DNA of 63,081 nucleotides, counting the filler, from Collodictyon triciliatum (Eukaryota), in the NCBI GenBank assembly GCA_043381765.1. It is 10 parts of 10 records of this genome, joined end to end, with 100 filler letters (N's around TTAATTAATTAA, not from the genome) between each part and the next. Parts side by side here need not be neighbours in the genome. Positions count along the whole stretch, not along the records: positions 1 to 6,219 come from JBHJMP010004630.1; 9 more parts are not named here. One strand, written 5' to 3'. Below, in pieces: positions 1 through 62,558 of the stretch (positions are counted from its first letter, which is position 1; the number at the start of each line of letters is the position of its first letter). The notes below the pieces were generated by a model that was not told where the DNA came from, did not search any database, and saw only the letters and a list, made by a program, of their open reading frames with translations. Both the position numbers and the translations under genes were made by a program.

Positions 1-1080
1 CTTCTTTTTTACACTTGCAGCGTCTCGCTTCAGCAAATCAACCTTTGGCGTAAAGTCTTTGTCTGTGTCTTTGTCCACAGGCTGCAGGTCCCTGCGCAGA
101 AATTTCTTCCCCTTCAATATATTCATGTCCCCTTCATTCAGCGCCTTTAGTTTATATGTGGGTGCTTTAAATCCGTCCTTCGAGACTTCGCGGCTTATAA
201 TTTTAAACAACGCAACAGTGAATTTCGGTATCCAGTTTTTATTGGTCTTGAATTTATTGCGCTCTTGCGTTGTCAAATTTGTTTTCTTCAGGTTCACACG
301 CACTAGTTGCCCGACCTCTAGTAAGTCGTCCTTGACTGAAGTGGCGGCTCGGTCTAATTTTTTCTGGTTAGCTTCTATTAACTTTGTCAGATTTTCTTTG
401 GTGGCCGCGTTGTTGGGTATCACCCCGGTGTCACGGTTCGGCTGATCGTTGATGCTGTCTGCAGTTTTTTCTAGCACTTCTTTCGTTAAGGTTTCCCCTG
501 TCTTTTGGTGGTACTTGTACAAACTATTCTTTACCACAGAATTCATGCGCTCCACGTAGGCCTGGCTCGTTGGGTTGTACGGACTCGACTTGACTTGCTT
601 GAGGCCGTGTTCTTGCAACCACGCTTTCTCGTACTTGAACTCTGTGCCGTTGTCGCTCTGGATCACCTTCAGCGCAGGATAATCCTTCTTGAACTCGAGC
701 ACGGCCTTCTTGCTTTCGGCCAGAGTCTTGTCGGTCAGCGGGTACAGAAACACCTTGCGTGTTAAAAGCACCACACAGGTCATTAGATAATTGTATTTCA
801 CTCCAACATGGTCTTCTGGGTACAGTCCCTTGGTATATATCAAATCTATCTGTGCGTACGACGGATCAGTGACATTGAAGGAAGTCACGTCCTTGCTTTT
901 GTACGCAGGTTTGCTGATTTGCTGATAGGGATTCTTTTTCATCCAACCCTCAATGTAGCTGCGAGGTATCTCCTTGTTGAAGTGGCGATACATCGCTTCA
1001 ACACTATTTACTTGCCCTGGGTCATTAAACCTTTTCTGTAGCTTCTCGTTGTATTGGTCACTAGTACTTGGGTTACTCAT
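1..1080 (-). CDS. Retroviral-type (rve, DDE) integrase of Polinton/Maverick type, 3'-truncated by the window edge
   Basis: Absent from the ORF track because no stop lies in the window. Hand translation from ATG 1080: MSNPSTSDQYNEKLQKRFNDPGQVNS...YAQIDLIY...IQSDNGTEF...QAYVERMN...LEVGQLVRV...FLRRDLQPV. D-D-E triad present; colinear with 60257-61618. Confidence 0.92.
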   Translation of the reverse strand, partial: MSNPSTSDQYNEKLQKRFNDPGQVNSVEAMYRHFNKEIPRSYIEGWMKKNPYQQISKPAYKSKDVTSFNVTDPSYAQIDLIYTKGLYPEDHVGVKYNYLMTCVVLLTRKVFLYPLTDKTLAESKKAVLEFKKDYPALKVIQSDNGTEFKYEKAWLQEHGLKQVKSSPYNPTSQAYVERMNSVVKNSLYKYHQKTGETLTKEVLEKTADSINDQPNRDTGVIPNNAATKENLTKLIEANQKKLDRAATSVKDDLLEVGQLVRVNLKKTNLTTQERNKFKTNKNWIPKFTVALFKIISREVSKDGFKAPTYKLKALNEGDMNILKGKKFLRRDLQPVDKDTDKDFTPKVDLLKRDAASVKKK

Positions 1081-1170
1081 TACATTTACAATACTTTTTT
1101 TTTGTGAAAAAAACGCAGCTTAAAAACTATTCAAAATCATAGATTAACTAAACAAGAATTTGCACGCACA

Positions 1171-1623
1171 ATGGCACGCACGTTAACTAGACAAGAACAG
1201 CACGCCGACGACACTACAACCCGCACGTTGACCGGAGAAGAGCTAGCAAGACTCAACTACCTGTGTTTCATTGAATGGGGAGAAAACCTAGACGGCGTGC
1301 GACAGATGGTTACAATTGCAAGGCGCTTACGCAAAAGCACTCATAAAAACTACATGAAGAGAAAAGAGAAAAAGAAAGCGTCTTCTTCACAGTTTGTGTT
1401 TGTCGACCCCGACGGAGTCCAGCATAAAATGACGCCCCTGGTTGATTACCCGGTGACCCCCGTTGTCGATTACTCAAGCGCCTCTGCATCGTCAATCAAA
1501 ACTAGTTCATCTGAGGGTTCCCCCCGTGAAGCCGCTGAACGTGTTCGCAAATACCTGGTTACACCTGACCCTGCACCCTTCTATCCGCCTTCCCCTCCCC
1601 ATTTCTGCCCTACAGACGAATAA
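1171..1623 (+). CDS. Conserved hypothetical viral protein (homolog of 59875-60189)
   Basis: TGEELARLNYLCFIEWGENLDGVRQMV...YMKRKEKKK aligns with TVEELSLFNSFCLREFFMPLDSVRTMV...YKRRTLKKK, at the same syntenic position. Confidence 0.75.
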   Translation: MARTLTRQEQHADDTTTRTLTGEELARLNYLCFIEWGENLDGVRQMVTIARRLRKSTHKNYMKRKEKKKASSSQFVFVDPDGVQHKMTPLVDYPVTPVVDYSSASASSIKTSSSEGSPREAAERVRKYLVTPDPAPFYPPSPPHFCPTDE

Positions 1624-1661
1624 ATTATGTCTCATTTCTCATTTTATTCTGTCAACACTGG

Positions 1662-3983
1662 TCAACACTGGTCACAGTCATCAAGAAGATGTTTCTTCTT
1701 TAAATGTTCTTTGACATGTTTGTCGTCAAACACGTACTTTCTGCTTTGATTTTTTTTAATTCCTATCCTTTTCAACTCTTGTCCAAAATATTGGATTGTC
1801 CATATATCTTTACGTCCTGCTCTATTCATGACATCTCTGAACAGATCATAAACTTGTGTGGGTGTATGAGGCGTAACATATAAGGCAGCAAATCTATCAT
1901 CTGGGCCAACAAGCACATAATCTTCATATGTCATTAGTAAGAACTGGTCTATTTGTGTAATTTGTAATTGTATCTGTTGTTTCCAAAGTTCTTTTTCCTT
2001 TTGTTTACCCACGACATAACTTTCGCTGTTCCAAGTATTATCATACTTTGTAAACAAATATCTACAGAATGTCAATACGTGATCTTTATCATTAATAGCA
2101 TTCTTTAAAAACTGTTGGTTTTCCTCAGGCATCTTTTCTTCTTTACATTGCACAACCATGTATCTTCGATTGCTATCAGACATATTAAAAACTGATACGT
2201 TGTTTGTATTACAACATATGTGGACATAGTTGTTGGTCGTGTACTTGCCAAGACCTTTCTTGTGAATAACTATGTCGTTAGCGACTAAAGCATCTTTCAT
2301 AACATCAGTAAACTGAACAGCATCTTTGCGTTGCCCCTCCTCTAGCAACACAAATACTTTGTTTTCTATTAGATCGTTAAATTCACCGAATAACTCGGCC
2401 ATCTTGCTCGACTTTACCCCACACAATTTACCAATGATTTTATCTATAAACAAGTCCTGAGTAATAAATGATTTGCCGATACCCTCTGTTTCGCTATAGA
2501 AAACAAGACAAGTATGAAAACGACCCATCTCATGAGGTGCAAACAATAAATGAGCAAACCATTGTATAACATAAGCATAAACGTCAGAATCATTGTTACA
2601 CAATTGATTGTACAGATGGTCTGTAATCCAACTCTTATTGTAAAATTCGCTAGTCTCTTCATCTGTAAGTCTTACCTTTATGTCTCCATGCTTTTGTATT
2701 TCATAACCTCTGAACATATTGTATGTTTGAGGATACACAGATTGATCTAAATCTATGGGTAAATCTGGGCGCATTACTAGTTTACTGACTATTCGTTTAG
2801 CATCATCTCTTTTCAAATCATCAATAAAGTCAACAATACAACCTTTTCCGATCTTGTAATAGTAATGTCCGTATTGTATTTTGGCTTCGCTTTGTGTATA
2901 TGTGTGTAAAGTACCATCATCGTTGATTCTAATGAATTTACCATTCATGATAAAATGGTCTTTTTCGTATATTTCCTTGATATAGCTGTAAGCATAACGT
3001 CCTTCTTTTATCCCAACATGTTCACGTAATTCGGTAAATGTGGCACTATCAAGGTATTCTAGAAATAAGCCAAACAGTGAACCTACTCCTAACTCGCTCT
3101 TGACTTTGTTTTGTTGAACATTTTCAATCACACTTTTCAGCTGATTAATTCTATCTTCAATAGTCGATTTGGAATTATCTGGCATTTGCTCGCAAATTCT
3201 CAACCATAACTTTGACAAATCACGTAAACCATTATTAACAATTATGTAACATACCTTTATCCATGTGTCATAGTCGTCTGGTATATATTTGAATAAGTCC
3301 CGGTCTAAAGCCATTCGGACTAAACATTCGCATGTCGCTCTTTCTTGGAATTTAGGAAAACTACTTCGATTCACAACTAGTTCTTCTATTTCTGAATCGA
3401 CTGTGTCAGATGTTTGTGGTTCTTTTCTTTTCTTTGACTTGTACTTTGCTATCAGAGGCGTAATGTCAAATTCCTGTACATCGTTGTATATCAACTTGTT
3501 TTGGCGTTCCCATATATTTTTTGTTTTGAATATCACATCAATGTCTGGGTATCCTTCGTCTAAAACTTTTGTGCCCTCCCATTGCGGATTCCAGTTAGCT
3601 GGCTTCTTTATGTACATGTGAATCCCTTTTGTATTACCTGGTGTCCAACACATATCATCTGTGAAACTAGCTATTCCCAATTTTTCTCCGAGTTGGCTAG
3701 GAGTGTGTATGTTTTTGTCATCACAGTCAATACAAACAACATCCCAGTATTTCAAAAAGACTGAGTAACATCGTTGAACGGTTTTGCTTTCTTCTAATTT
3801 CATTTTGCGTTTCAACCTGGCAATCCAATTACCTGATACCCTGCTTTTTTCTTTCCATTCAGGTAAATCAACTAACGCACAGTTGTTTTTTTCTCTGACA
3901 GTTTCTTTTTGCCCATCAATCAGAACATAATGCGCATACGCATATGGCACTTGTTTTGTAGCTAAAAACTCTCCTATGTCCAT
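1662..3983 (-). CDS. AEP primase-polymerase + PriCT-2-like domain + D5-like SF3 helicase fusion (773 aa)
   Basis: AEP motifs VVCIDCDD (hhhDhD), GNTKGIHMYI (GhH) and DIDV. PriCT-2-like DYDTWIKVCYII. Helicase Walker A SETEGIGKS, Walker B VFVLLEE, motif C CNTNN, Arg finger SNRRYMV. Confidence 0.88.
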   Translation of the reverse strand: MDIGEFLATKQVPYAYAHYVLIDGQKETVREKNNCALVDLPEWKEKSRVSGNWIARLKRKMKLEESKTVQRCYSVFLKYWDVVCIDCDDKNIHTPSQLGEKLGIASFTDDMCWTPGNTKGIHMYIKKPANWNPQWEGTKVLDEGYPDIDVIFKTKNIWERQNKLIYNDVQEFDITPLIAKYKSKKRKEPQTSDTVDSEIEELVVNRSSFPKFQERATCECLVRMALDRDLFKYIPDDYDTWIKVCYIIVNNGLRDLSKLWLRICEQMPDNSKSTIEDRINQLKSVIENVQQNKVKSELGVGSLFGLFLEYLDSATFTELREHVGIKEGRYAYSYIKEIYEKDHFIMNGKFIRINDDGTLHTYTQSEAKIQYGHYYYKIGKGCIVDFIDDLKRDDAKRIVSKLVMRPDLPIDLDQSVYPQTYNMFRGYEIQKHGDIKVRLTDEETSEFYNKSWITDHLYNQLCNNDSDVYAYVIQWFAHLLFAPHEMGRFHTCLVFYSETEGIGKSFITQDLFIDKIIGKLCGVKSSKMAELFGEFNDLIENKVFVLLEEGQRKDAVQFTDVMKDALVANDIVIHKKGLGKYTTNNYVHICCNTNNVSVFNMSDSNRRYMVVQCKEEKMPEENQQFLKNAINDKDHVLTFCRYLFTKYDNTWNSESYVVGKQKEKELWKQQIQLQITQIDQFLLMTYEDYVLVGPDDRFAALYVTPHTPTQVYDLFRDVMNRAGRKDIWTIQYFGQELKRIGIKKNQSRKYVFDDKHVKEHLKKKHLLDDCDQC

Positions 3984-4165
3984 TCTTTTGTATAGACTTA
4001 ATTAATGTATATTGAACGCATTTCTTTAAACCAACAATTCTGAACGGTTGTGTAAGACTTTCTAGATTGTATGATGTTGAATAACTTTTTACCCGCCTCG
4101 CCTCAAGTCCAGTTCTTAATTCCAGAATTCGGTCCCTCCCTCCTTCTACTGAGTTATTAAAAGTA

Positions 4166-4305
4166 TTACATATCTTACATATCTTACATTTTATTCATTT
4201 AATAAATAAATAAATAAATATATACATATAAAGAAGTAAGGAATAGAGGGAGGAGAGCGAAAAAACGTTTTGCTAGATATTTTAAAAACCATGTAGGATA
4301 TGTAA
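4166..4305. promoter_or_regulatory. Putative replication origin of element A: inverted TTACATATC iterons around an AT-rich core
   Basis: TTACATATC-TTACATATC-TTACAT at 4166-4189, inverted copy ATGTAGGATATGTAA at 4291-4305, (AAAT)n core between. Lies upstream of the replicase gene. Function is inferred. Confidence 0.5.
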
Positions 4306-4309
4306 AACT

Positions 4310-4474
4310 TTAATCGAACAGGACCGTCACAGGCCCTTCTATAATGCCCCACATATCAGGACCTTTCTTTCTCCTACCCTTCTTTCTCAATGCCTCGAGT
4401 TTGTCAAAGTATTCTTTCAGTTCTTCAAAAGTAGCAAAGAGCATTTCACCCTCCATTGTATATAGTCGTAGCAT
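4310..4474 (-). CDS. 54-aa micro-protein conserved in both elements
   Basis: MLRLYTMEGEMLFATFEELKEYFDKLEALRKKGRRKKGPDMWGIIEGPVTVLFD*. Same length, position and terminal motifs as 57135-57299. Confidence 0.8.
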   Translation of the reverse strand: MLRLYTMEGEMLFATFEELKEYFDKLEALRKKGRRKKGPDMWGIIEGPVTVLFD

Positions 4475-4490
4475 ATCTAAGACTAGATAT

Positions 4491-5213
4491 TTAAAAAAGG
4501 ATTTCTTCCGAAAAGTTCTTGTAAGCTTTGATTCTGCGGGGTACCATCAGGTTTACATATAGAAAGCAATACGGATCTGCTGTAGCGAAATCAAAAACCT
4601 GGTCAAAGAGTTTCTGATCGAGATTGGTCATTTCATTGAGGGCTTCCCGTTCGTGTTTATTGTCGGTGTAAAAAGCAACGAGGTGGGAGGCGTTTTGTCG
4701 TACCTTGGGGTTGAATAACCTGATGGCATGCCCCACTACGATCATTGATAGTCTGAAATGACGGTGCTGTAACATTTTCTTGAGCAGGGTCTTACTAGGG
4801 CGTTCGAAAGCGGTGCCGAGGTCGTCGACCACCAGTAAGTACGCATTGTCCTTGAACTCGGGGTCACTGGTAATGTCTTTTGTGACTTGTTCAAAGATTT
4901 CCTCGTTAAAGTCCTCATACATGCGGCTTTTGTGAAATTTGACACCCTCGTAGCTTGAGTCATGAATTTCTCCTCCGGAAATGTTTGAAGAGCAGAAATA
5001 TACCTTGTCGAATATCTGGTGATACATTTCTCGCTTACCCAGCAAATTACTGATCAAGGTTGTTTTGCCGCTAGCGACTTTCGCACTTATAAGCATCCAG
5101 AAGGGTCTATCACTCTTTGCGTCCGGCAATATTTCTAGAATGACTTCCCGTTTGTTTTTCTTGGCTGTCTTTAATGGAGCAACCTCAATATTACTTACTT
5201 GCTTGCTTTCCAT
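4491..5213 (-). CDS. A32/FtsK-HerA-like virion genome-packaging ATPase
   Basis: Walker A AKVASGKT, Walker B LLVVDD, and the QHRHFRLSMIVVGH and RQNASH motifs typical of Polinton/virophage/NCLDV packaging ATPases. Confidence 0.9.
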   Translation of the reverse strand: MESKQVSNIEVAPLKTAKKNKREVILEILPDAKSDRPFWMLISAKVASGKTTLISNLLGKREMYHQIFDKVYFCSSNISGGEIHDSSYEGVKFHKSRMYEDFNEEIFEQVTKDITSDPEFKDNAYLLVVDDLGTAFERPSKTLLKKMLQHRHFRLSMIVVGHAIRLFNPKVRQNASHLVAFYTDNKHEREALNEMTNLDQKLFDQVFDFATADPYCFLYVNLMVPRRIKAYKNFSEEILF

Positions 5214-5219
5214 ACTTAT

Positions 5220-5549
5220 CTAACGAAATAAAAGATCATTGTCGTACGAAAGTTCCCGCACTTGAGCCTTGTCGACTGTTTCCTTTATTCTGCGCTTCTC
5301 GATTTTGCGGGCCTCTTCTTTTGTCAGATATTGTTTGATCAAGGACACGTCGTGCTGTAACGAAGAATAGTCGTGAATGGGTTTTTTGACGGCCTCGTAT
5401 TTCTTGACCGTCTGAACGATTTCCTTGTTCTTCTTCTTGGCTTCTGTCGCTTTGGGTTGAATCTTGGCAAGGTGGGCTCTCTGCTTTTCTGATACTATGC
5501 GTTTCTTTTTTGGTTTCTCTATGGTATCTATATTTTCGGGGTCGCTCAT
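5220..5549 (-). CDS. Lysine-rich basic protein (possible DNA-binding/core protein)
   Basis: KPKKKRIVSEKQRAHLAK... basic helical protein, 6 nt upstream of the ATPase start. Confidence 0.6.
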   Translation of the reverse strand: MSDPENIDTIEKPKKKRIVSEKQRAHLAKIQPKATEAKKKNKEIVQTVKKYEAVKKPIHDYSSLQHDVSLIKQYLTKEEARKIEKRRIKETVDKAQVRELSYDNDLLFR

Positions 5550-5581
5550 ACAACCACAGAGAAATAATTTCTGGCAAGAGT

Positions 5582-6219
5582 ATGGATAAAGCTTTCTACA
5601 TTTATGTTGATAGTGCCAACCGAGAAAGCGGAAGTATCGCAGACTTTAATTTCGCAACAACCCAAAACAGATATGTGTCGAGTAAAGCAAAAATTGGGCT
5701 AGAGTCTATCCAAATACCCAATGCTGTACACAACGTCACATCCGCCAACAACTCACTAGCTTTTCTGTGTCAGGTCGGACAAGACAGCCCTGTTTCATAC
5801 AATGTTTCACTAGAAACTGGTTTGTTAACTATCCAAGAAATCGTCAGTGACATCCGAACAAAAATGAACGCAGCAACCAATTCCCAGTCAGCCGCATTAG
5901 CTGTTTCTGTGTCGTATCTTAGTGGCAAGCAAAAGATAGCAATCAAAGGAGACGGTCCGAGTATTTCAATTCAACTATTTGTGAATAGTAGTACATGTAG
6001 AGAGCTCATAGGACTGACAGCAAATCTCACATTCAACACGTCGTTTGTAGAGCTACAGAATACAGTCAATATTCGACCTTTTGATTATGTGTACCTGGTG
6101 TCCCCGAACATTCAGAGTTCGAGCTTTGCCAGCAATATAGGCGGCAATGGCATCATCGCAAAAATACCGCTGAGTCTTGGGGCGAGATATGCGAGTTATT
6201 ACGAGGTCAATGACAATAT
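5582..6219 (+). CDS. Minor capsid (penton-like) protein, 3'-truncated
   Basis: MDKAFYIYVDSANRESGS..FNF...IGLESIQIPNAVHNVTSANNSL...YVYLVSPNI...IIAKIPL matches the DSxxR / IPNxxxNV...NN pattern of PLV/NCLDV minor capsid proteins. Likely start is ATG 5582, not GTG/TTG 5510. Confidence 0.75.
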
Positions 6220-6319
6220 NNNNNNNNNNNNNNNNNNNNNNNNNNNNNNNNNNNNNNNNNNNNTTAATTAATTAANNNNNNNNNNNNNNNNNNNNNNNNN
6301 NNNNNNNNNNNNNNNNNNN
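6220..6319. other. Artificial contig spacer (44N-TTAATTAATTAA-44N); also at 12533, 18853, 25203, 31517, 37831, 44145, 50472 and 56778
   Basis: Identical 100-nt block with stops in all six frames, separating contigs of near-equal length (about 6.2 kb). Confidence 0.98.
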
Positions 6320-6845
6320 CATTTTTTTGTACCACCCAAGCGTAAAAAATTTTGCTTCATTATTCACACAACTCACGTTTTACATCTCGTAACGGAAAGT
6401 CCAAATTTATTGTATAGATAAAGGGATAAAATAAAAAAAACAAAAAGAAAGTCGTCGATGTGTCGACCTTGCCAAAAAAAATAAAAAAAAAATAAAAAAA
6501 AAAACCCGTCGACCTACTGACCTTGACCTGTGGTGACAAAAGTGTCATGATTTGGAAATGTAGAATTCCCGATATCAGGTAATGTAGGAATCCAGGAATT
6601 CTAAACATACAGGAATGTATGAAATCTGGGAATTCATGTGTAACTCCGACCGACTTCGCGGAAATAATGCACCACGCCGTGGTCTACGAAGCTTCTAGAA
6701 TAGACCACAGACCACAATGCACCACAAATCACGGGTATAAGTAAGTAGAGGATTCACGATTGAGAATTGTAACTTTGACTGTGAATTTTTAACAATTGTG
6801 TAACATAATCATAACAAACAATCATAGGTAATCAGTTACCAGTGG

Positions 6846-7235
6846 ATGAGAATGTCGCAAAGCAGGGAATCCAAGGACCAAGAAACAAATACCAACGAAG
6901 CAGTGTCGGAGCTATTGGACGGACTTCCAGAAGACTTCTTTGATCCATTGGTTACTTATGTCGACGATATATTGCCACAACAGAAAGAAGAAAATCCTCG
7001 CGTGGATCTTAGTGACCCCCAATATCAACATTTACCAAAGTATTTTGATTCTGGACATATGTTAGTTAAATGGCCCAATTCTCCTATATATCAAACAAAT
7101 TGTGCCTTGTCTTTTGATTACATGGTATTTAAAGTTGAAACTTACGACTATTTTTCAAGATGGGACATAGAAAAAATTTGTTTAGATGTTCGAGATAGTA
7201 CAGCATGGGCTCATAGTTATTGGTTTTTTTTATAA
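6846..7235 (+). CDS. Hypothetical intronless protein (129 aa)
   Basis: Open frame in AT-rich DNA, TATA-like GGGTATAAGT about 110 nt upstream, AATAAA at the stop. No family recognised. Confidence 0.4.
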   Translation: MRMSQSRESKDQETNTNEAVSELLDGLPEDFFDPLVTYVDDILPQQKEENPRVDLSDPQYQHLPKYFDSGHMLVKWPNSPIYQTNCALSFDYMVFKVETYDYFSRWDIEKICLDVRDSTAWAHSYWFFL

Positions 7236-12691: not shown

Positions 12692-15600
12692 GTATTTAAA
12701 ATCGTGGCCCCGAAGAGAGAAGCCTTAAAGGAGGCAGAGGAAAAATTCCGCGTTACTATGGAGACTGTGGAAGCGAAAAAAAAGTTGCTGGAGGACGCAG
12801 AGACAAGAATTCAACAGCTAGTCGAAAAATACGATAATGCAATAACAAAGAAAAATGATCTCCAGTCCCAAGTTCAATCCGTTGAGAAAAAACTGGATCG
12901 TGCGCAGAGACTTATCAAAGGACTCGGGGGAGAAAAAGACAGATGGATGAAAGCCAGAGATCATCTTGCTACAACATATGAGCTGCTGGTTGGGGATGTG
13001 TTGGTATCTTCTGCTGTCATCGCATACTTGGGACCTTTTACCGCTACATATCGAAACTCAATAGTAGAGAACTGGGTCAAACTTGTTCGCAGCAAAAGAA
13101 TTCCATGCAATGAACACTTTAACTTTACAAACACGATAGGAGATTCTGTTCAGATTCGGCAGTGGAAACTGGACGGCCTTCCACCCGACCGCTTCTCGGT
13201 GGAAAACGGTATCATGGTTATGAAGACGGGAGGCAGGTGGCCTTTCATGATTGATCCTCAGGGACAAGCCTGCAAGTGGATTAAAAAGATGGAATCAGGG
13301 AGTCGCATAGATGTCATCCGACCAGCAGACAGTGATATTATGCGCCGACTGGAAAATGCAGTGCAGTTCGGTAATCCTGTATTGATTGAAAATCTGGGTG
13401 AAACAATCGACCCGCAACTCTACCCCATCATTATAAAGGCAACATTTCGACAGGGCGGCCAGCTGATGATAAACATCGGAGGAAGTGCCGTAATGTTTTC
13501 CCCATCCTTCCGTCTCTACCTGACTACGAAGCTTCCAAATCCCCATTACAAACCGGAAATTTGCTCCCGTGTCACACTGGTGAACTTTATGGTGACCCCG
13601 GAGGGGGTCCAGGACCAATTGCTGGGTATTGTTGTGGCCAAGGAGAGACATGAGCTGGAAGAAGAAAAAAACAGTCTTGTCGTCCAGAACGCAAAGTTTC
13701 AGAGTGAGTTGAAGAGAATAGAAGACCAAATATTGCGACTGCTTTCAGATGCAGAGAGCAACTTTCTGGAAGATGAAGTCTTGATTGAGACTTTGAACGC
13801 TTCCAAAATTACATCACAAGAGATTGCAGAGAAAATAGCATTGTCAGCTGAAACGGAAGCTAAGATTGATACGGCGCGTTTGAGCTACCAACCAGTGGCC
13901 ATTCGAGCGTCTCTTTTATACTTTTGTGTGGCTGATATGGCAAACTTGGAGCCCATGTACCAGTATTCTCTATCTTGGTTTGTAAACATATTTGTCAAGT
14001 CTATTTCTGCAGCTGAAGGATCTCAACACTTGCAGCAGAGATTGAAAAACTTGAGCAGTCACTTTATGTACTCGCTTTATCGCAATATCTGTCAATCGCT
14101 ATTCGAGAAAGATAAGCTGCTTTTTTCATTTTTAATGTCCACACGCATTGAACGAGAGCAAGGGCATATCAGTGGCGTTGAGTGGAGATACTTTCTAACT
14201 GGTGGCTCTTCTCTGGGTTCATCAAGTCAGCTGCGTCCGGCATCACTCTCCTGGCTCCCAGAAAACATCTGGCAAGAAATTGTGAACATTTCACACCTTC
14301 CAGCTTTCTCTGAGATAACCTATCAGCTGGCGTCGCAAGCAACAGTTTGGAAGTATTTCTATGAAAAGGCCGATCCACTGGTGACGCCGCTGCCCGAACC
14401 TTACAAGGATAAGCTGTCGTCGTTCCAGAGGCTATGTCTCTTGCGTGCTATGCGGCCGGACAAGGTGGTTCCTGCGTGCCAATCCTTTATTTCTGCAACC
14501 TTGGACGCCAAGTTCATCGAGCCTCCACCTTTTGACCTTCTGAAATCTTACAAAGATTGCGACAACAAGACACCCATTATATTCATTCTGTCGCCGGGAA
14601 TGGATCCGATGGAGGAGTTTATGAACTTGGCGTTGAAGCTTGGGTTCAGAGATAAAACAAGCACCATTTCTCTCGGACAAGGGCAAGGACCCATCGCTGA
14701 TCGAATGGTGCACGAGGGCTCGGACAAAGGCCGTTGGATTCTCTTACAGAACTGCCATTTGGCTACAAGCTGGATGCCAACATTGGAGCATATCACANNN
14801 NNNNNNNNNNNNNNNNNNNNNNNNNNNNNNNNNNNNNNNNNNNNNNNNNNNNNNNNNNNNNNNNNNNNNNNNNNNNNNNNNNNNNNNNNNNNNNNNNNNN
14901 NNNNNNNNNNNNNNNNNNNNNNNNNNNNNNNNNNNNNNNNNNNNNNNNNNNNNNNNNNNNNNNNNNNNNNNNNNNNNNNNNNNNNNNNNNNNNNNNNNNN
15001 NNNNNNNNNNNNNNNNNNNNNNNNNNNNNNNNNNNNNNNNNNNNNNNNNNNNNNNNNNNNNNNNNNNNNNNNNNNNNNNNNNNNNNNNNNNNNNNNNNNN
15101 NNNNNNNNNNNNNNNNNNNNNNNNNNNNNNNNNNNNNNNNNNNNNNNNNNNNNNNNNNNNNNNNNNNNNNNNNNNNNNNNNNNNNNNNNNNNNNNNNNNN
15201 NNNNNNNNNNNNNNNNNNNNNNNNNNNNNNNNNNNNNNNNNNNNNNNNNNNNNNNNNNNNNNNNNNNNNNNNNNNNNNNNNNNNNNNNNNNNNNNNNNNN
15301 NNNNNNNNNNNNNNNNNNNNNNNNNNNNNNNNNNNNNNNNNNNNNNNNNNNNNNNNNNNNNNNNNNNNNNNNNNNNNNNNNNNNNNNNNNNNNNNNNNNN
15401 NNNNNNNNNNNNNNNNNNNNNNNNNNNNNNNNNNNNNNNNNNNNNNNNNNNNNNNNNNNNNNNNNNNNNNNNNNNNNNNNNNNNNNNNNNNNNNNNNNNN
15501 NNNNNNNNNNNNNNNNNNNNNNNNNNNNNNNNNNNNNNNNNNNNNNNNNNNNNNNNNNNNNNNNNNNNNNNNNNNNNNNNNNNNNNNNNNNNNNNNNNNN

Positions 15601-16856
15601 NNNNNNNNNNNNNNNNNNNNNNNNNNNNNNNNNNNNNNNNNNNNNNNNNNNNNNNNNNNNNNNNNNNNNNNNNNNNNNNNNNNNNNNNNNNNNNNNNNNN
15701 NNNNNNNNNNNNNNNNNNNNNNNNNNNNNNNNNNNNNNNNNNNNNNNNNNNNNNNNNNNNNNNNNNNNNNNNNNNNNNNNNNNNCAACGACAAACCAGAG
15801 ATATGCGGTCTTCACGAAAACGCAGACATCACGTATGCCAGAAACGAAACTAGTCTCTTCGTCTCTTCTCTCTTGCTTATGCAACCGCGGTCGTCGGGAG
15901 ACCAAGACGGAGAATCTCAGGAATCTGTTCTGGAGAGGGTGTCTGCAGACATTCTGAGCCGTGTTCCGACACCTTTGGATGCAGAAGAGATTGCGAGACA
16001 GAGGCCAATCAGGCACGATGATTGCATGACCACGGTCCTTTTGCAGGAGGTGATGCGCTACAACACCCTTTTAACAAAAGTCCGCCTGTCGTTGGTGGAG
16101 CTTCAGAACGCGCTCAAAGGACTGGTGGTGATGTCTGTGGATTTGGAGATGATGGCATTCAGCCTGTTTGATGGCCAAGTGCCGAGCAACTGGGCAAGGA
16201 TTGCGTACGAATCTCGCAAGCCGCTCGCAGGGTGGGTTGCAGACCTGGTTTCTCGCATCAAGTTTGTTAAATCGTGGAGCGAAAAAGGCCCGCCCAGCGT
16301 CTTCTGGCTCTCCGGATTCTTTTATCCGCAAGCCTTCCTGACAGGTGAGGTTTCCCTCCGCTTCTTGTGTCCTCTTTGACACCTTGCCATTCCCCAACGC
16401 ACAGAGTCCCCTCTAAGCGCGCCATCAAACACCGTAGGCCAGCTCCAAAACCACGCGCGCAGACACGCAATTGCCATCGACCATGTGTCCTTCGACTTCA
16501 ACGTCATGCCGGGCCCTTGCAAGAGCGCAGCCACGAGCGGATGCTACATCGACGGGCTTTTCCTCGAAGGGGCGCAGTGGGATAACAACGCAGGGCGTCT
16601 GGCAGAGTCGAATCCCAAGGAGCTCTTTGTCAGCATGCCCATCATCTGGCTCAGCCCCTTCGACACAAGCAGACGCGCCCGCGACTCGGCCATGCGCTAT
16701 GCCTGCCCTGTGTACAAGACAAGCAAGCGCTCGGGCGTCCTGTCATCCACAGGCCATTCCACAAACTACGTCCTGACCATCGACCTCACCACCGTCAACC
16801 CTCCTGCGCACTGGGTCAAGCGGGGCGTCGCGCTGATTTGCCAGACAGACTTTTGA
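12692..16856 (+). CDS. Axonemal dynein heavy chain, C-terminal part (stalk, AAA5, AAA6, C-terminal domain); N gap 14798-15784; intron 16345-16437
   Basis: VAPKR, RWPFMIDPQGQA, RLYLTTKLPNPHY, ISLGQGQG, WILLQNCHLA, FWLSGFFYPQAFLT, YACPVYKT, HWVKRGVALICQ. Resembles inner-arm type heavy chains. Confidence 0.95.
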
Positions 16857-31011: not shown

Positions 31012-31516
31012 ATTTTCTTTCCTTTGTTCCATTCAAAGAGCAGCAATGTTATGCCATATAAAGGGGCGGGATGGGAGCGCATGGGAGAGAGCAAACGCGA
31101 GTAGGAGAAGACACTACCGTGGAGAGGCTAGCACTGGAGAGAAATCAGTGATAGTGAGTTGGTCAGGTGGGCGACATAACTGATTGATTGGTTGCGTGGG
31201 TAGCAGGGGTTGGATGTGCTGTGGGAGATATCGCACGACACATTCCCACATCTCTCTTCGCTTGCGGTCAGAGTAGCGATGAATGCGGGCGTGTTTCAGA
31301 AGGCTGTTCAGGAAACTGTATTGCACGAGGCTTTCAAGCCTGGCTACATTGATTTCTCGTTCGGGTGAATCATTAGAGCTAGAGAATGCGCGCACACTCC
31401 ACAAGGACCACAGCATATGTCCCCTTGTGACTGTCCAGAGTATTCTAGAGTCGTGGGTCATTTGGTATTGTGGGCCAAACAGGATGTCAGACGCGCTGAG
31501 TCGGTTGGGAGCATAA
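31012..31516 (-). mobile_element. 3' end of an L1/Tx1-like non-LTR retrotransposon (ORF2 C-terminus + 3' UTR)
   Basis: LSASDILFG...ILWTVTRGHMLWSLWSVR resembles the ILFG...LWxIWxxR ORF2 tail. The 3' end (31012-31133) is homologous to 53511-53630. Confidence 0.6.
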
Positions 31517-53510: not shown

Positions 53511-53630
53511 TTGCTAGCCTTTCTACGGTGGTGTCTTCTACTCACGTTTGCTCTCTACCACGCGCACTTATTTCGTCCCTTTGTATGGCAAAACCGCGCT
53601 GCACTTTGAATCGAATTAAGGAACAAAAAT
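53511..53630 (+). mobile_element. 5'-truncated copy of the LINE 3' end
   Basis: TGCTAGCCT..TACGGTGGTGTCTTC..CGTTTGCTCTCT..TATGGCA..CTTTGAAT..GGAACAAAAAT aligns with the reverse complement of 31012-31133. Confidence 0.7.
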
Positions 53631-56600: not shown

Positions 56601-56878
56601 ATATATTATTCGCATTTTATCAATAGGAAGATGTCCGAGCCATCACCAAGCAGACGATCTGACGCCGCCAACCAGCAAGAATCTGGAGACCAGAAACAGA
56701 CAGAACTAACCCGAGAACCCGCATCGGTCGATGAGAAAATCCGCGGAGGCTTGATTCCAGCCGCATTTTATTCTGATNNNNNNNNNNNNNNNNNNNNNNN
56801 NNNNNNNNNNNNNNNNNNNNNTTAATTAATTAANNNNNNNNNNNNNNNNNNNNNNNNNNNNNNNNNNNNNNNNNNNNG

Positions 56879-57118: not shown

Positions 57119-57134
57119 TATCTAGTCTTAATAT

Positions 57135-57299
57135 ATGTTACGACTATATACTCCTAATTCTGAACAACATGTATTTTTGACTTTTGAGGAGGCCCAGCAG
57201 TTTCTTGACTCGCTCTTTACAAAAAAGAACAGGGTAGACAGGAAAAGAAAATCTCTTTACTCTATTCTTCGTGGCCCTGTTACAGTTGTTTTTGATTGA
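57135..57299 (+). CDS. 54-aa micro-protein (homolog of 4310-4474)
   Basis: MLRLYTPNSEQHVFLTFEEAQQFLDSLFTKKNRVDRKRKSLYSILRGPVTVVFD*. Confidence 0.8.
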   Translation: MLRLYTPNSEQHVFLTFEEAQQFLDSLFTKKNRVDRKRKSLYSILRGPVTVVFD

Positions 57300-57477
57300 A
57301 CGGAACACCTGGACACCTGGACACCCTCTTTTCAAACTTTTTAAAATTCTGGACCCTCGGCCTTTTTTAAAAAAAAAGGGGTAGGGTCGGTATGAATTAT
57401 TATTTTTAGGAGGTGTCCCAGTAAGGGTGTCCCTAGGGTGTTCTTAAAAAAATGAGACTGAAAAGAGTAAGGAAAAA
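57288..57477. repeat. ~190-bp direct repeat, copy 1 (putative origin with GGACACC iterons)
   Basis: Near-identical to 62251-62441; internally palindromic. Confidence 0.9.
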
Positions 57478-57569
57478 TTAATCAAGGAACACCCTATCCC
57501 ACCTCAAGAGATACCCTAAAATGCCCACTTAAAAACATTTGTCTATGAGTAAGTAAGAACAAAAGAAAA

Positions 57570-59849
57570 ATGGAACTCATTGAATCAATCGACCCCGTTA
57601 TCATTGACAAACTTCTGCAACAATCAGCAGAAAAAGTAGACAAAAAGACAAAGGGAAAGCTAAGTGTAATTAAACAGCGATTAGTTAATGGACAACTGAA
57701 AGTGAAATATGATTACTCAAAGCACTGCAGAAAAATTAAAGTTGGAAGATTCTATCCAGCGAGTATTTCTGTGGGAATGTTGGAAAAGCCCCTGCGTAAT
57801 TATCTGATGAAGGATAAATATGCTAGTCTTGATATTGTTAATTGCCATTATGCTCTGTCTTTAGAACTGGCAAAAAAATGGGACACACCTTATGAAGCTA
57901 TTGAGAAGTATGTCAAGAACCGTGACAGTATAATTGAAAGGACAATGGAGTTAACACAAAAGACTCGCAAAGAAGTTAAGAAGCTGTATCTGATGCTGGC
58001 TTTTAGCGGCAAAGTCCAGCCAATTGACCAGTTTGCTACTCAACTGCAATCAGAAATGAACATGCTCGCAGCTATGGCATATAGCAAATATCCAGAATGG
58101 CACAAACTCAAACTTCGCGAGTCAGACGAATGTCTAGCTGATCACGACAATCGCATTTATAGTTTGTTGGCATATGTGCTTCAAACAGAAGAAACTAAAA
58201 TCATGCAGGTAGTGATTGATGCCTTGGTGAATAAAGGTGAAGTCGAAGTTGGATTTTATAATTTTGATGGGCTGTTTGTTGATAAAGTTGGATACGAATC
58301 CGGCGCAGGAATAGAAGAAACAAATGGTGCAATGAGTCAATATGTTGAAGAACAAACAGGGTATAAAGTAGAATTTAGCTATGAACCTATTGAATCAACG
58401 TTTAAGCCTGATGAAGTTGCTACAACAGTTTCAATTGCAGAATTTGCAAAGACTCATTTTATGTTACGCGGTGACTTGTTTGTTGAGTACCCGGATGAAC
58501 CCACTCGCAAACCCGAACATATTAAGTCTGCTGGATCTTATTGTCAAGAATTTGGAGACAAGTACTGGCAAAAAGTTCAGAGAGTTTTGCCAAAAGAAAG
58601 ACGATTCATGTACTTTGATTTTTTGCCGTATGACGGATTTACAAACAAGTATAACCCAAAGGCCTATAACAATTTTAAGGGCTTTAAATTTGAAGAGTAC
58701 TTTCCTGAATTCAATGGATTGCAGTTGAAAGATTGGATTGGGTACTGCAATCGCATAGCTTCTTCTGTTACTGTTGATGATTATAGTGTCTGGAAAAATA
58801 GCATGACATATAAACAATTGTCAAAGTATCTTTGTGCTAGTAATGCTGTCTCAGAGAAATATGTCATACAATACTTGGCTAGAATATTGTATCATCCGAG
58901 TTATCGCATTGGCAAAATGATGATATTTAGAAACAACAGAGGAGGGACAGGCAAGACTGCTTTCTTTCACAAACTGTTTGTCCAGCAAATCATTGGAAAG
59001 CAATACGGCAGTACACACTCAAGTCTGTCTGAAATATTTGGAGACAAGAATATGAATATTCAGAACAAGTTACTTTGCATTCTGGAAGAAAGTGATGTTT
59101 CAAAAACTAAGACATTACAAGGAGACATTAAAGAAGCTGTCGATCGTGACGAAAATCACATTCGTATGCTTTACCACAATCCTTATCCTGTAAAGAATAC
59201 AGTCAATTACATTCTTAACACCAACAAAGAAATCGGGATTGTTTTTGAGCGAGACAATATGAGACGCTTCCCTGTGTTTGATGTGTTGGAGCATCGCCTG
59301 AGTCCCGGGGAAATCAAACAACTGACCCAGGAGTGTTATGACTCTGACTTTGTTAAAATTTTTACTAAGGTGTTAATGAACGAGTATGATCCTAATTTCA
59401 ACTTTAATGACTTTCCAAAAAGTGAGACTTGTGAAGTACTGGCAGAAACTAGCATGCATCCCGTGGAACAGTTTATTAAGTTCTTGTTTGTTGAATGGAA
59501 TGAATACATCTGGGACACGTATGAGCTGACGTTCAAATCACAGTATCAATGGCATAAAGAAAAGGACGCATCACCATTTAGTCACAGTGCCGATGAGATT
59601 TATGACATATACAAAATGTTCAGCGCCAAGAGACTCCCGAATCACAAAGTGTTGGAGTTTAAATCGTTTACCAACAATGCACACTGGACAACATTTAAAT
59701 CTACCTATGGGGTTACGTCAAAGAAAGGTAAGTATGAATGCGACTATAAACAAGTCCGTAAATTGTTGACAGAGAATAGCAATTTGAAAAATCACTTCAA
59801 TTCTGAAGGAATCGTGAGCAGCGCCAAGAGAGCCCGCACAAAAGAATAA
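57570..59849 (+). CDS. TVpol (PolA-related transposon-viral polymerase/primase) fused to a D5-like SF3 helicase (759 aa)
   Basis: GRFYP...LRNYL, motif A SLDIVNCH, motif B RKEVKKLYLMLAFSG, LQTEE, motif C FDGLFV. Helicase GGTGKT, LCILEE, LNTNK, NMRRFPV. Same architecture as Sputnik virophage V13. Confidence 0.85.
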   Translation: MELIESIDPVIIDKLLQQSAEKVDKKTKGKLSVIKQRLVNGQLKVKYDYSKHCRKIKVGRFYPASISVGMLEKPLRNYLMKDKYASLDIVNCHYALSLELAKKWDTPYEAIEKYVKNRDSIIERTMELTQKTRKEVKKLYLMLAFSGKVQPIDQFATQLQSEMNMLAAMAYSKYPEWHKLKLRESDECLADHDNRIYSLLAYVLQTEETKIMQVVIDALVNKGEVEVGFYNFDGLFVDKVGYESGAGIEETNGAMSQYVEEQTGYKVEFSYEPIESTFKPDEVATTVSIAEFAKTHFMLRGDLFVEYPDEPTRKPEHIKSAGSYCQEFGDKYWQKVQRVLPKERRFMYFDFLPYDGFTNKYNPKAYNNFKGFKFEEYFPEFNGLQLKDWIGYCNRIASSVTVDDYSVWKNSMTYKQLSKYLCASNAVSEKYVIQYLARILYHPSYRIGKMMIFRNNRGGTGKTAFFHKLFVQQIIGKQYGSTHSSLSEIFGDKNMNIQNKLLCILEESDVSKTKTLQGDIKEAVDRDENHIRMLYHNPYPVKNTVNYILNTNKEIGIVFERDNMRRFPVFDVLEHRLSPGEIKQLTQECYDSDFVKIFTKVLMNEYDPNFNFNDFPKSETCEVLAETSMHPVEQFIKFLFVEWNEYIWDTYELTFKSQYQWHKEKDASPFSHSADEIYDIYKMFSAKRLPNHKVLEFKSFTNNAHWTTFKSTYGVTSKKGKYECDYKQVRKLLTENSNLKNHFNSEGIVSSAKRARTKE

Positions 59850-59874
59850 AATGAATGGTGGTTATTCCCACAAT

Positions 59875-60189
59875 TTATTTTGAGTTTGTTGATATAGATT
59901 CACTAGAAGACATTCCAGTTGAATAAACTTTAGGAAAGCGATCTTCAAATTCTACATAGTCTGGAATATGGATGTCAATCACAGGGGGTGTTATAGGTCT
60001 TTCAATATTAGCTATGGCGTTCTTCTTTTTCAATGTGCGGCGTTTGTAACCTCGGGAATTTCTAGCTTTTGTTCTGAGCCCACATGACACCATTGTGCGC
60101 ACACTATCCAATGGCATAAAAAATTCTCGGAGACAAAACGAATTGAACAGGCTAAGTTCCTCTACAGTAAAATGGAAATCCATTATCAT
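59875..60189 (-). CDS. Conserved hypothetical viral protein (homolog of 1171-1623)
   Basis: Shared EEL..N..C..E...LD.VR.MV...Y..R..KKK pattern and synteny. Confidence 0.75.
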   Translation of the reverse strand: MIMDFHFTVEELSLFNSFCLREFFMPLDSVRTMVSCGLRTKARNSRGYKRRTLKKKNAIANIERPITPPVIDIHIPDYVEFEDRFPKVYSTGMSSSESISTNSK

Positions 60190-60256
60190 TACATTATTGT
60201 ATACAGATGTTTTTAAGTTGCGTTTTAATGATGAAAAATAAAATGTATGTTAATAT

Positions 60257-61618
60257 ATGAGCACTAGTGATAATTATAATGAAAAATTACAGAAACGTTA
60301 TAATGAACCTGGACAAGTGAATTCAATTGATGCATTGTATAGACATTTCAATAAGGAGATACCTCGAAGTTATATAGTTAGATGGATGAAGAAAAACCCG
60401 TATCAACAAATAAGCAAGCCAGCTTTTAAAAGTAAAGATGTTAATCCGTTTAATGTAACAGATCCTAGTTATGCACAGATCGATTTGATTTATACCAAAG
60501 GGTTGTATCCAGATAACTATGAGGGTAGTATGTTTAAGTATTTGATGGTGTGTGTTGTTTTGTTAACACGCAAAGTATTTATGTATCCATTGACTGAAAA
60601 GACTTTGGCAGAATCCAAGAAGGCCGTACTTAATTTTAAAAAAGACTATCCACCTTTGAAGGTTATCCAAAGTGATAACGGAACAGAGTTTAAGTTTGAC
60701 AAACAATTTCTTAAGGAAAACGGATTAAAGTCAGTAAAGAGTTCTGCATATAATCCAACAAGTCAGGCATATGTTGAGCGAATGAATAGTGTTGTAAAAA
60801 ATTCACTATACAAGTTACATCAAAAGACTGGTAAAGATGTATTGACAAAAGAAGTCTTAGAAAAAACAGCTGATAGTATAAATGACCAGCCTAATAGAAG
60901 CACTGGTGTAATTCCTAACAATGCTACTACAAAAGAAAACTTGGAAAAGTTAATAGAAGCAAATCAGAATAAACTAGAAAAAGCTAGCAAGAGTGAAAGA
61001 GACAATGTGTTAGAAGTTGGCACAAAAGTTAGAGTCAGTTTAACTAAAACCAATCTAACAACACAAGAAAGAAATAAGTTTAAGACACAAAAGAATTGGA
61101 TACCTAAATTTACTACAGAGCTTTTTATCATACACAAAGTAAATATTCATAAGGAGGGATTTAAAGCACCAACTTATGAATTGAAGGGAATGAAAGAAGA
61201 AGACCAGAAAATATTAAAGGGCAAACGCTTTTTACGCAGAGACCTACAACCCGTGGATAAAGACACAAAAGAATTCAAGCCTGTAGTTGATTTAATTAAA
61301 CGAGACACAGAGTCTAAACCAAGAGGTAGACCTAGATTAATCGAAGAGAAAGTAAAAGCACGCAAGGCTTGGAATATGCTGTGGATGAACGCAAAGAATT
61401 TTACAAACAGAACAGGGAAGTTTGATGTTGGAAAAAAAGAACGACAAGAAGAATTAATAAAGGCACAACCCAAAATTAAAAAGTTGTTTGATGCTTTTAT
61501 TCAGACTTATACGGATAGTCCTCCATTGACTACTCTGCAGAAAAAGAACTTTGAAAAGTTAAAGCGTGTGATAGCAGAGCCAATAGAAAAAAGACGGAAA
61601 CAAAGTGTAAAGAATTAA
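60257..61618 (+). CDS. rve (DDE) integrase of Polinton type with a C-terminal AT-hook-like motif
   Basis: QIDL, QSDNGTEF and YVERMN catalytic triad; LEVGTKVRV...FLRRDLQPV C-terminal domain; KPRGRPR. Confidence 0.93.
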   Translation: MSTSDNYNEKLQKRYNEPGQVNSIDALYRHFNKEIPRSYIVRWMKKNPYQQISKPAFKSKDVNPFNVTDPSYAQIDLIYTKGLYPDNYEGSMFKYLMVCVVLLTRKVFMYPLTEKTLAESKKAVLNFKKDYPPLKVIQSDNGTEFKFDKQFLKENGLKSVKSSAYNPTSQAYVERMNSVVKNSLYKLHQKTGKDVLTKEVLEKTADSINDQPNRSTGVIPNNATTKENLEKLIEANQNKLEKASKSERDNVLEVGTKVRVSLTKTNLTTQERNKFKTQKNWIPKFTTELFIIHKVNIHKEGFKAPTYELKGMKEEDQKILKGKRFLRRDLQPVDKDTKEFKPVVDLIKRDTESKPRGRPRLIEEKVKARKAWNMLWMNAKNFTNRTGKFDVGKKERQEELIKAQPKIKKLFDAFIQTYTDSPPLTTLQKKNFEKLKRVIAEPIEKRRKQSVKN

Positions 61619-62187
61619 CTCTGTTTTTTTGGCAGAACAAAGCGTGGTTTTTTTTTCAACTCTTTTTGTATTTCTTTGGTAAGCTTACCCAAAGCATCAG
61701 GGTCTTGCTCCAATTCTTTGGCTTCTTCTTTTTCTTTCTTTTTCATTGAGGACTCTGCCTCTGCGACTATCTTGCGTTTCTCTGCGCGCTTGGGTTCATT
61801 CTCTTTTACTTTGGCTAAACCCTTTTTCTTTTTCTCAAGGTTAGCTTCTTTTGATTGTCTGTATATATCACCGATGTCTTTGGTGTTATTTGTCCAAGTC
61901 TTTCCGTAGTTTGTCATTCCTAGGACTTTACCTTCCTGGTCTTTCCATAAAGCATTACCCACTTCATTCTGAACCATTGAAACAAATCCTTGGTTGATTT
62001 TAGCAGGGTACTCTTTGCCATTGTACGATCGTGCTTTCATTTCATACATAATGTAGTCTCCTTTTTCCAAGTCTTCATATTTGACTTTGGAAAAATCTTT
62101 ATTGTCTGTTGGCAGAGTTGAAGTCTTTTTGCCTTTGGCTTTGTCTTCTTCGGTAGGCGCGGACTTAGAAAATTTTCGGGGCGGCAT
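61615..62187 (-). CDS. Lysine-rich protein with a central beta-rich domain
   Basis: 190-aa ORF whose stop overlaps the integrase stop in a shared TTAA; YEDLEKGDYIMY is SH3/KOW-like. Confidence 0.7.
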   Translation of the reverse strand: MPPRKFSKSAPTEEDKAKGKKTSTLPTDNKDFSKVKYEDLEKGDYIMYEMKARSYNGKEYPAKINQGFVSMVQNEVGNALWKDQEGKVLGMTNYGKTWTNNTKDIGDIYRQSKEANLEKKKKGLAKVKENEPKRAEKRKIVAEAESSMKKKEKEEAKELEQDPDALGKLTKEIQKELKKKPRFVLPKKQS

Positions 62188-62250: not shown

Positions 62251-62441
62251 GTTTTTGATTGAACGGAACACCTGGACACCCGGACACCCTCTTTTCAAAC
62301 TTTTTAAAATTCTGGACCCTCGGCCTTTTTTAAAAAAAAAGGGGTAGGGTCGGTATGAATAATTATTTTTTAGGAGGTGTTCTAGTAAGGGTGTCCCTAG
62401 GGTGTTCTTAAAAAAATGAGACTGAGAGGAGTAAGGAAAAA
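62251..62441. repeat. ~190-bp direct repeat, copy 2 (subterminal)
   Basis: Near-identical to 57288-57477. Confidence 0.9.
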
Positions 62442-62468
62442 ATGGAAAAGGATCAAGTGGGTAGAAGT

Positions 62469-62558
62469 GGACGGCTAAGTCTTGGACGGCTAACCCTAAC
62501 CCTAACCCTAGGACGGCTAACCCTAACCCTAACCCTAGGACGGCTAACCCTAACCCTA
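62469..62558. repeat. GGACGG-punctuated telomere-like (CCCTAA) repeat array
   Basis: GGACGGCTAA(CCCTAA)2CCCTA twice (27 bp each), plus one 21-bp unit and one partial unit. Confidence 0.9.

Follow-up and report, generated by a model that had tools for sequence, protein, structure and literature searches.

Polinton-like viruses (PLVs) are 15-20-kb DNA viruses or mobile elements of microbial eukaryotes; the genome expected of the group measures about 14-40 kb and bears terminal inverted repeats (TIRs). Parts of two such elements lie in the window analysed here, a stretch of 63,081 nt from Collodictyon triciliatum (assembly GCA_043381765.1), and they raise the question of whether two related genomes with the same genes in the same order also replicate by the same machinery. 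The comparisons described below indicate otherwise: pieces 1 (1-6219) and 10 (56878-63081) are very probably parts of two related members of one PLV family, between which the replicase and its upstream repeat region have been exchanged. The window comprises ten pieces of 6,204-6,250 bases separated by 100-nt linkers (44 N, TTAATTAATTAA and a further 44 N; 6220-6319 and eight others), and pieces 2-9 yielded no fragments of PLV genes. A first-pass annotation had described both elements as partial. They are incomplete, and the cause is a cut made by sampling, since the window consists of joined samples of about 6.2 kb. Published systems are cited here for those parts of each source that describe the feature in question.

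Two related elements with different replicases

In their visible parts, both elements share the order penton, ORF109, A32 ATPase, superfamily 3 (SF3) helicase fusion, small open reading frame (ORF), rve integrase and ORF190, with element 2 inverted in the window relative to element 1 (Table 1). Every visible ORF of the two elements is open. The integrases are 78% identical as proteins, and the 3' ends of the ATPase genes show 79% nucleotide and 92% amino acid identity. The small ORFs between helicase and integrase, ORF150 and ORF104, are 27% identical (E 4e-07). Neither ORF150 nor ORF190 matched a Pfam family; homologues of ORF190 stand beside the integrase in two metagenome contigs, L003 (29% identity) and L004 (43%), and homologues of ORF109 adjoin the ATPase in L001-L004, L006, L007 and L016. 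The annotation's view of element 2 as a sister of element 1 is borne out by this synteny and identity, and the extent given for it (56878-62565) probably needs to be lengthened, as discussed below.

The rve integrase is secure, because D76, D140 and E174 of the DDE triad are invariant in all four family members and a profile built from these members matches integrase cores in the PDB. At E <= 1, this profile retrieved 127 PDB sequences, including HIV, HTLV and foamy-virus integrase cores, with PFV integrase as the best match (1.1e-08). Both integrases score slightly under the Pfam cut-off (for element 1, rve at 29.2 bits and E 1.2e-06 against 32.6 bits), and the element 2 integrase matched the IS481, IS30 and IS3 transposase models of NCBIfam at E 4e-10 to 1e-06, below their cut-offs. 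The element 1 ATPase matched Pox_A32 (PF04665) at 35.1 bits against a cut-off of 22.8. For the penton, a full-length homologue (L001:17-787(-)), 93% identical to the 212 aa in the window, was modelled with a pLDDT of 72.3. At E <= 0.001, BFVD gave 55 matches to the model, which include proteins of Tetraselmis viridis virus S1 (TVS1), the minor capsid proteins of mavirus and Qinghai Lake virophage, adomavirus LO5 and adenovirus penton. Against 48,161 representative PDB chains, seven matches reached Z >= 8, all of them icosahedral virus capsid chains (PBCV-1 P1, 14.6; mavirus penton, 10.2; Sputnik capsid chain, 10.0; and others from fowl adenovirus, EhV-201 and iridovirus). A penton profile searched against PDB sequences gave a weak match to PBCV-1 P1 alone (E 0.25); at the level of the modelled fold, the identity of the penton is secure. 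The integrase, SF3 helicase, packaging ATPase and penton-like gene noted at first pass are all present and look intact.

The two replicases, referred to here as helicase 1 and helicase 2, both carry DUF5906 above its cut-off of 27.6 bits (element 1, 47.6 bits, E 3.1e-12; element 2, about 47 bits, E 3.9e-12). They are, however, different proteins: identity is 24% and confined to the helicase half, and the first 350-400 residues or so are unrelated. The sister element was thus wrongly credited with the same replicase, and the label of primase-helicase, which probably holds for element 1, does not apply to element 2.

In helicase 2, DUF5906 occupies residues 457-566. A search of 1.84 billion representatives with the first 351 aa found 1,462 relatives at E <= 0.001; of the 150 listed, the majority measure 650-850 aa. 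In a 40-sequence alignment of helicase 2 homologues, DUF5906 is present in 23, and G59, R60, R76, D88, K137, E208, D233 and G234 are invariant. Sequence-only searches of Pfam, NCBIfam and PDB sequences gave the N-terminus no name, and an Atlas search was unclear. Its structural model (pLDDT 90.2, pTM 0.84) yielded 138 PDB matches at E <= 0.001; among the matches listed, all are DNA polymerases, with Klenow first (2e-06), followed by Taq, Bst, mycobacterial and Aquifex Pol I, Pol nu and T7. In a viral library, the best named match was the 'DNA replication protein' of Zamilon virophage (4.8e-18, TM 0.70), followed by a Qinghai Lake virophage 'helicase/primase/polymerase' and then by phage Pol I. 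D88 and D233 may correspond to polymerase motifs A and C. As judged from the modelled fold, the element 2 replicase is a fusion of TVpol, a family-A-polymerase-like domain, with an SF3 helicase.

Such matches suggest that the elements could be virophages of the mavirus or Sputnik kind. Element 2 shares with the Sputnik/Zamilon replication protein its two-domain TVpol-SF3 design and family A polymerase fold, at a sequence identity of only about 20-24%; Sputnik/Zamilon-type virophages use a tyrosine recombinase (PMC12220804), unlike the rve integrase found here. The penton model also matches mavirus and Sputnik capsid chains. However, the highest-ranked named BFVD penton matches are from TVS1, a PLV, and no cysteine protease family was detected in L003, a longer relative described below. 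Moreover, the TVpol-SF3 helicase fusion is known not only from Sputnik-type virophages but also from PLVs (PMC4642659, PMC12220804). A virophage affiliation is very improbable, and the elements are treated as PLVs in what follows.

Helicase 1 is probably, if not provably, a fusion in which an AEP (archaeo-eukaryotic primase) is joined to PriCT and SF3 helicase, judging by its conserved motifs and nearest clusters. Only three homologues were found in a word-indexed search. Walker A (GxGKS), EE and TNN are invariant in 3/3 sequences in the helicase, as are CIDxD, WTxGNxKGxHxY and DID in the N-terminus. The nearest language-model clusters of the Atlas are Prim-Pol plus PriCT_2 (score 0.96), and a PDB match to the NrS-1 'Primase' (3.1e-10) falls over the helicase part.

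Replicase exchange among metagenome relatives

Relatives of the two elements were found in environmental sequence. Metagenome or read-archive assemblies supplied all 14 homologues of the ATPase (44-90% identity), and a scan of JGI metagenome contigs gave 18 loci. L001 (4,807 nt) is the one that bears on the exchange. It shares 89% DNA identity with element 1 over 1,907 nt, spanning penton, ORF109, ATPase and a further 177 nt, and the encoded proteins are 93%, 97% and 96% identical, respectively. The similarity ends 177 nt past the ATPase stop codon (4314 in element 1, 2055 in L001), and the helicase of L001 is 57.5% identical to helicase 2 and 24% to helicase 1. At the sequence level, this comparison shows a replicase swap between closely related genomes, with breakpoints just downstream of the ATPase gene. 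The swap is recent, since a contig 89% identical to element 1 across penton to ATPase carries the replicase type of element 2.

The breakpoint also falls exactly at the edge of an inverted-repeat region, with the repeats on the helicase side. In element 1, helicase and ATPase are separated by a 507-nt spacer, which holds repeat arms of 21 nt (4160-4180 and 4291-4311) that are 90% complementary. All four helicase genes examined (elements 1 and 2, L001 and L003) have inverted short repeats of their own upstream, and those of element 1, L001 and L003 are comparable to those of element 2 but unrelated in sequence. These regions may act as origins, or have a control function, and move together with their helicase.

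These observations fit a two-module design, in which penton, ORF109 and A32 packaging ATPase would build the particle, while an end module would supply a self-encoded replicase, the small ORF, the DDE (rve) integrase and ORF190. Element 1 would be replicated by its probable AEP primase-polymerase-SF3 helicase and element 2 by its TVpol-SF3 helicase. Replicase gene and upstream inverted-repeat region have been exchanged together between closely related genomes, the repeats presumably serving as replication origins recognised by the cognate helicase. Particles would be made, and the integrase would insert the genome into host chromosomes. The pair offers a sharply resolved, recent replacement in a PLV of one replicase by another, an AEP-type or a family-A-polymerase-type helicase fusion, and the idea that a cognate origin and replicase move as one unit is directly testable at the bench.

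The longest syntenic relative, L003, is a 16,409-nt contig with 11 ORFs of at least 100 aa and no detected host genes or TIR. Its order is a 533-aa ORF, a 114-aa ORF, a 1,188-aa proline-rich repeat protein, a 737-aa ORF, penton, ORF112, ATPase, a 148-aa ORF, a helicase-1-type protein (47% identical from end to end), integrase (34%) and an ORF190 homologue, such that the gene order of both elements recurs in L003, as it does in L001. In L004 (10,409 nt), with an integrase of 52% identity and an 837-aa helicase with a hint of PriCT_2, ORF109, ATPase and penton are rearranged relative to L003 and the window elements. No family B polymerase of the protein-primed type (pPolB) was found by Pfam in the visible 12 kb or so of elements 1 and 2, and no PolB family in L003. 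BLAST with the PolB of L010, a more distant contig, gave no match in L001, L003, L004 or the window. PolB motif patterns caught one motif only in the positive control and make a poor test. Close relatives thus lack detectable pPolB, and the wider family includes pPolB users. As proposed at first pass, the elements are of PLV type: they pair an rve integrase with a replicase of the SF3-helicase kind, and their visible parts show no pPolB, with which L003 agrees.

Several points weigh against this interpretation. For the replicase of element 1, the three N-terminal motifs are ones that we take to be the AEP primase motifs (DxD, sxH and hD), no significant profile match to a primase domain was obtained for the N-terminus, and the PriCT_2 matches are weak and below cut-off (E 0.05 for helicase 1, 0.0065 for L004). 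The window gives a view of one end of one element only, that of element 2. Neither sampled fragment includes a gene for the double jelly-roll major capsid protein of PLVs, and an alignment of the candidate 533-aa ORF of L003 found no match among PDB sequences. In IMG/VR, no relatives were retrieved with the ATPase, the ATPase alignment or the integrase alignment. The absence of pPolB was judged by Pfam and BLAST only, and many PLV polymerases are missed by canonical PF03175 matches (PMC12220804, section 11). Finally, L010, whose ATPase is 41% identical, carries a protein-primed PolB (PF03175, 2.3e-21) beside its ATPase-penton pair, in the region L010:1-3960.

The last of these points leads to the proposal of genuine Mavericks/Polintons, with the genes for pPolB, protease and capsid located in unsampled parts. 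Like Mavericks/Polintons and mavirus, they have an rve integrase, an A32 ATPase and the penton fold, and elements with two replication genes have been reported (preprint 10.64898/2026.07.28.741278). They differ from Mavericks/Polintons and mavirus in that the replicase is an SF3 helicase fusion and that neither pPolB nor protease was found in the visible parts or in L003. Conversely to the proposal, each element already has a replicase of its own, the syntenic L003 is without PolB by Pfam or BLAST, and the best penton matches include PLV (TVS1) proteins. Taken together, a Maverick identity is highly unlikely, and membership of one PLV family with exchanged replicases is preferred.

Two observations on the structural genes of the relatives may be added. 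The 1,188-aa ORF of L003 (2174-5740), which lies among structural genes, has long proline/alanine-rich tandem repeats and no Pfam family. In addition, a gene encoding 480-970 aa neighbours the penton in L004 (7901-9343), L003 (5771-7984) and L010 (7511-10423); it contains repeated motifs of the type 'P-S-L-x-F-x-D...TG', matched no family, and from these repeats looks like a fibre or spike rather than a major capsid protein.

Repeat regions and the outer end of element 2

Element 2 has a direct repeat of about 205 nt, whose two copies bracket helicase, ORF104, integrase and ORF190 and are 98% identical over 120 nt and 89% over the remainder. In each copy, three GRACACCY words precede a central palindrome that carries an A/T run, and the words recur in inverted orientation after it; as folded DNA, the repeat is not significantly stabler than shuffled sequence (z -1.66). 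Outside the second copy lie telomere-like tandem units, and the window has two occurrences of the word CCCTAACCCTAA, where chance would give 0. A near-perfect palindrome follows, so that element 2 probably extends to at least 62688, and piece 10 runs about 390 nt past the last recognisable feature.

Metagenome contigs with joints in this region give some further insight. One contig joins 62256 to 62616 and omits the repeat block, which hints that the palindrome region is within the element, the repeat block being a lineage-specific gain. Another joint, from 57306 to 62566 on opposite strands, could not be interpreted. A joint from 62460 back to 57519 was considered as evidence of a circle and rejected, the simpler explanation being the ordinary left repeat-helicase junction of a relative. 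In L004, the ATPase-penton spacer (6632-7087) contains (CCCTAA)3 and has inverted repeats of 46 nt on its two sides.

The arrangement raises the possibility that the 4.96-kb block of helicase, ORF104, integrase and ORF190 is itself a self-contained, mobile replication-integration cassette. Recombination at the origin-like 205-nt repeats, or replication starting from them, would carry it from one capsid module to another. End replication or telomere-directed insertion would be the role of its outer end, where CCCTAA repeats resembling host telomeres adjoin a palindrome able to form a hairpin. The layout of element 2 has a parallel in Gezel-14T, in which a direct repeat of >300 bp lies in the TIR and just downstream of the end module (PMC11296320); replicative/integrative 'end modules' with turnover were proposed in the same paper. 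Both genomes keep replication and integration genes together at one end, with a few-hundred-nt direct repeat present close to the terminus and again immediately within the end module. The Gezel-14T module, however, comprises a tyrosine recombinase, a primase-helicase and a GIY-YIG nuclease (PMC11296320), whereas that of element 2 has an rve integrase and a TVpol-SF3 helicase, with no nuclease seen. Such a cassette is considered unlikely, and exchange of the replicase with its upstream repeats remains the favoured account. An end module bracketed by direct repeats and bearing telomere-like repeats is nevertheless the one feature that may conceal something out of the ordinary.

The end of element 2 also bears on whether integrated copies were sampled at all, or rather free or episomal virus genomes sequenced together with the host. 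Piece 1 is viral from end to end, the relatives are gene-dense metagenome contigs without detected host genes (e.g., L003), and, with one end in view, neither a pair of TIRs or target-site duplications nor a host gene was seen beside either element. On the other hand, both elements encode a complete-looking DDE integrase, piece 10 runs on beyond the last recognisable element feature, and the samples stand alongside dynein, HMG-box and LRR genes of one eukaryotic record, although none of these is decisive. In four metagenome runs, there was no cover beyond about 62690, which is uninformative on host or virus origin. On balance, a free or episomal state appears somewhat unlikely. If the pieces were drawn at random, PLV DNA in two of the ten would point to a high copy number.

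Published counterparts, occurrence and other features of the window

The combination of an rve integrase with a primase-helicase replicase had been regarded as uncommon, a view that reflects the state of knowledge in 2015, when the rve integrase was described as absent from PLVs 'with a single exception' (PMC4642659). The divide between Polintons and PLVs has since become blurred (PMC7805220). Endogenous elements of protists were reported as 'often including' pPolB or a primase-helicase together with a tyrosine recombinase or rve integrase (PMC10120064). In several cryptophyte PLV clusters, rve is the main integrase (85%, 71%), and TVpol-SF3 and AEP-SF3 helicase replicases are widespread (PMC12220804). 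Switches among pPolB, TV-Pol and AEP-SF3 helicase modules are described as common in all PLV groups (preprint 10.64898/2026.06.19.733378), and terminal palindromes have been tied to non-pPolB replicases and particular rve integrases (preprint 10.64898/2026.07.28.741278). The combination is therefore not unusual, given published PLVs that pair rve with AEP-SF3 or TVpol-SF3 and switch modules frequently (PMC10120064, PMC12220804 and the two 2026 preprints). Both the gene combination and the module swap are, within these sources, already-described PLV features, and the current picture of PLVs is unchanged. Among the new details, the one resolved best is that AEP and TVpol were recently exchanged on a capsid module of 89% identity, at a breakpoint next to a repeat region specific to the helicase.

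Endogenous and metagenomic protist PLVs with an rve integrase and a non-PolB replicase offer the closest likeness by description. Like these PLVs, among them the cryptophyte clusters and the Halocafeteria elements (PMC12220804, PMC10120064, 10.64898/2026.07.28.741278), the elements have a penton, A32 ATPase and rve integrase, an AEP-SF3 or TVpol-SF3 replicase near one end with the helicase adjoining the integrase, and replication modules that are exchanged among related capsid modules; palindromes near the ends are shared with rve-bearing elements that lack pPolB. Unlike them as described in those sources, element 2 has telomere-like 27-nt repeats next to its end and an origin-like 205-nt repeat bracketing the end module. 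Tlr1 of Tetrahymena likewise has an rve integrase, ATPase and capsid genes without pPolB, but its helicase is PIF1-like, of superfamily 1, rather than an SF3 fusion (PMC4642659).

The open frames had also been read as a sign of recent activity, and substitution rates lend this support. In comparison with L001, the ATPase has a dN/dS of 0.04, the penton one of 0.13 and ORF109 one of 0.02, values that, as a sequence measure, show the genes to be under purifying selection; between the integrases of elements 1 and 2, dS is saturated and dN is 0.19. From these comparisons, the genes appear functional and the elements look active. DNA resembling element 2 occurs in aquaculture and freshwater metagenome runs (best word share, 0.46), with some part of the element in 20/24 listed runs, and a 4,741-nt metagenome contig spans 57385-62112 with 184 differences and 20 gaps. 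Contigs of two RNA libraries span ORF104, integrase and ORF190, which is no proof of transcription. RNA run X5 covers the ATPase end as well as the integrase block and leaves out helicase 2, a gap in cover that is not evidence in itself but fits a relative with yet another replicase. The family was thus found in bulk metagenomes and read-archive assemblies and not in IMG/VR, where helicase 1 retrieved no relatives and the helicase-2 alignment gave only 15 distant loci (21-36% identity), in none of which BLAST detected a related integrase.

Table 1. Positions of the annotated features of elements 1 and 2 in the window
Feature	Position	Strand	Remarks
Element 1 DDE (rve-type) integrase	1..1080	-	first 360 aa; 3' end beyond window start
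Element 1 small ORF (ORF150), 150 aa	1171..1623	+	between helicase and integrase
Element 1 replicase, 773 aa: probable AEP primase-polymerase + PriCT-2 + SF3 helicase	1662..3983	-	DUF5906
Element 1 inverted short repeats around AT-rich tract	4160..4311	.	upstream of helicase gene; putatively origin-like
Element 1 A32-like DNA-packaging ATPase, 240 aa	4491..5213	-	Pox_A32
Element 1 ORF109, lysine-rich, conserved, adjoins ATPase	5220..5549	-	homologues in relatives
Element 1 penton (minor capsid), first 212 aa	5582..6219	+	truncated at piece end; fold of homologue
Element 2 ATPase, last 79 aa	56879..57118	+	truncated at piece start; frame translation
Element 2 direct-repeat copy 1, ~205 nt	57288..57491	+	putatively origin-like
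Element 2 replicase, 759 aa: predicted TVpol + SF3 helicase fusion	57570..59849	+	DUF5906, model
Element 2 ORF104, counterpart of ORF150	59875..60189	-	same position
Element 2 DDE (rve-type) integrase, 453 aa, complete	60257..61618	+	DDE triad, profile
Element 2 ORF190, lysine-rich	61615..62187	-	kept beside integrase in L003, L004
Element 2 direct-repeat copy 2	62251..62455	+	start-to-start 4963 nt from copy 1
Element 2 three 27-nt tandem units with CCCTAA repeats (telomere-like)	62475..62558	+	
Element 2 near-perfect palindrome, 21-nt arms, 1-nt loop	62646..62688	.	possible terminal hairpin

The other pieces hold eukaryotic genes, namely a dynein heavy chain (12758-16379), an HMG-box protein (27946-29361) and a leucine-rich repeat (LRR) protein (42539-43159). 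A run of 987 N (14798-15784), which may be a gap, lies within the dynein heavy chain frame 12758-15853. At 42539-43259, long ORFs overlap on opposite strands; the minus-strand ORF encodes the LRR protein, and the plus-strand ORF, without a family, is probably a shadow frame. Pieces 5 and 9 have in common a 122-nt inverted repeat (31012-31133 and 53512-53630; 79% identical), which is probably a dispersed host repeat.

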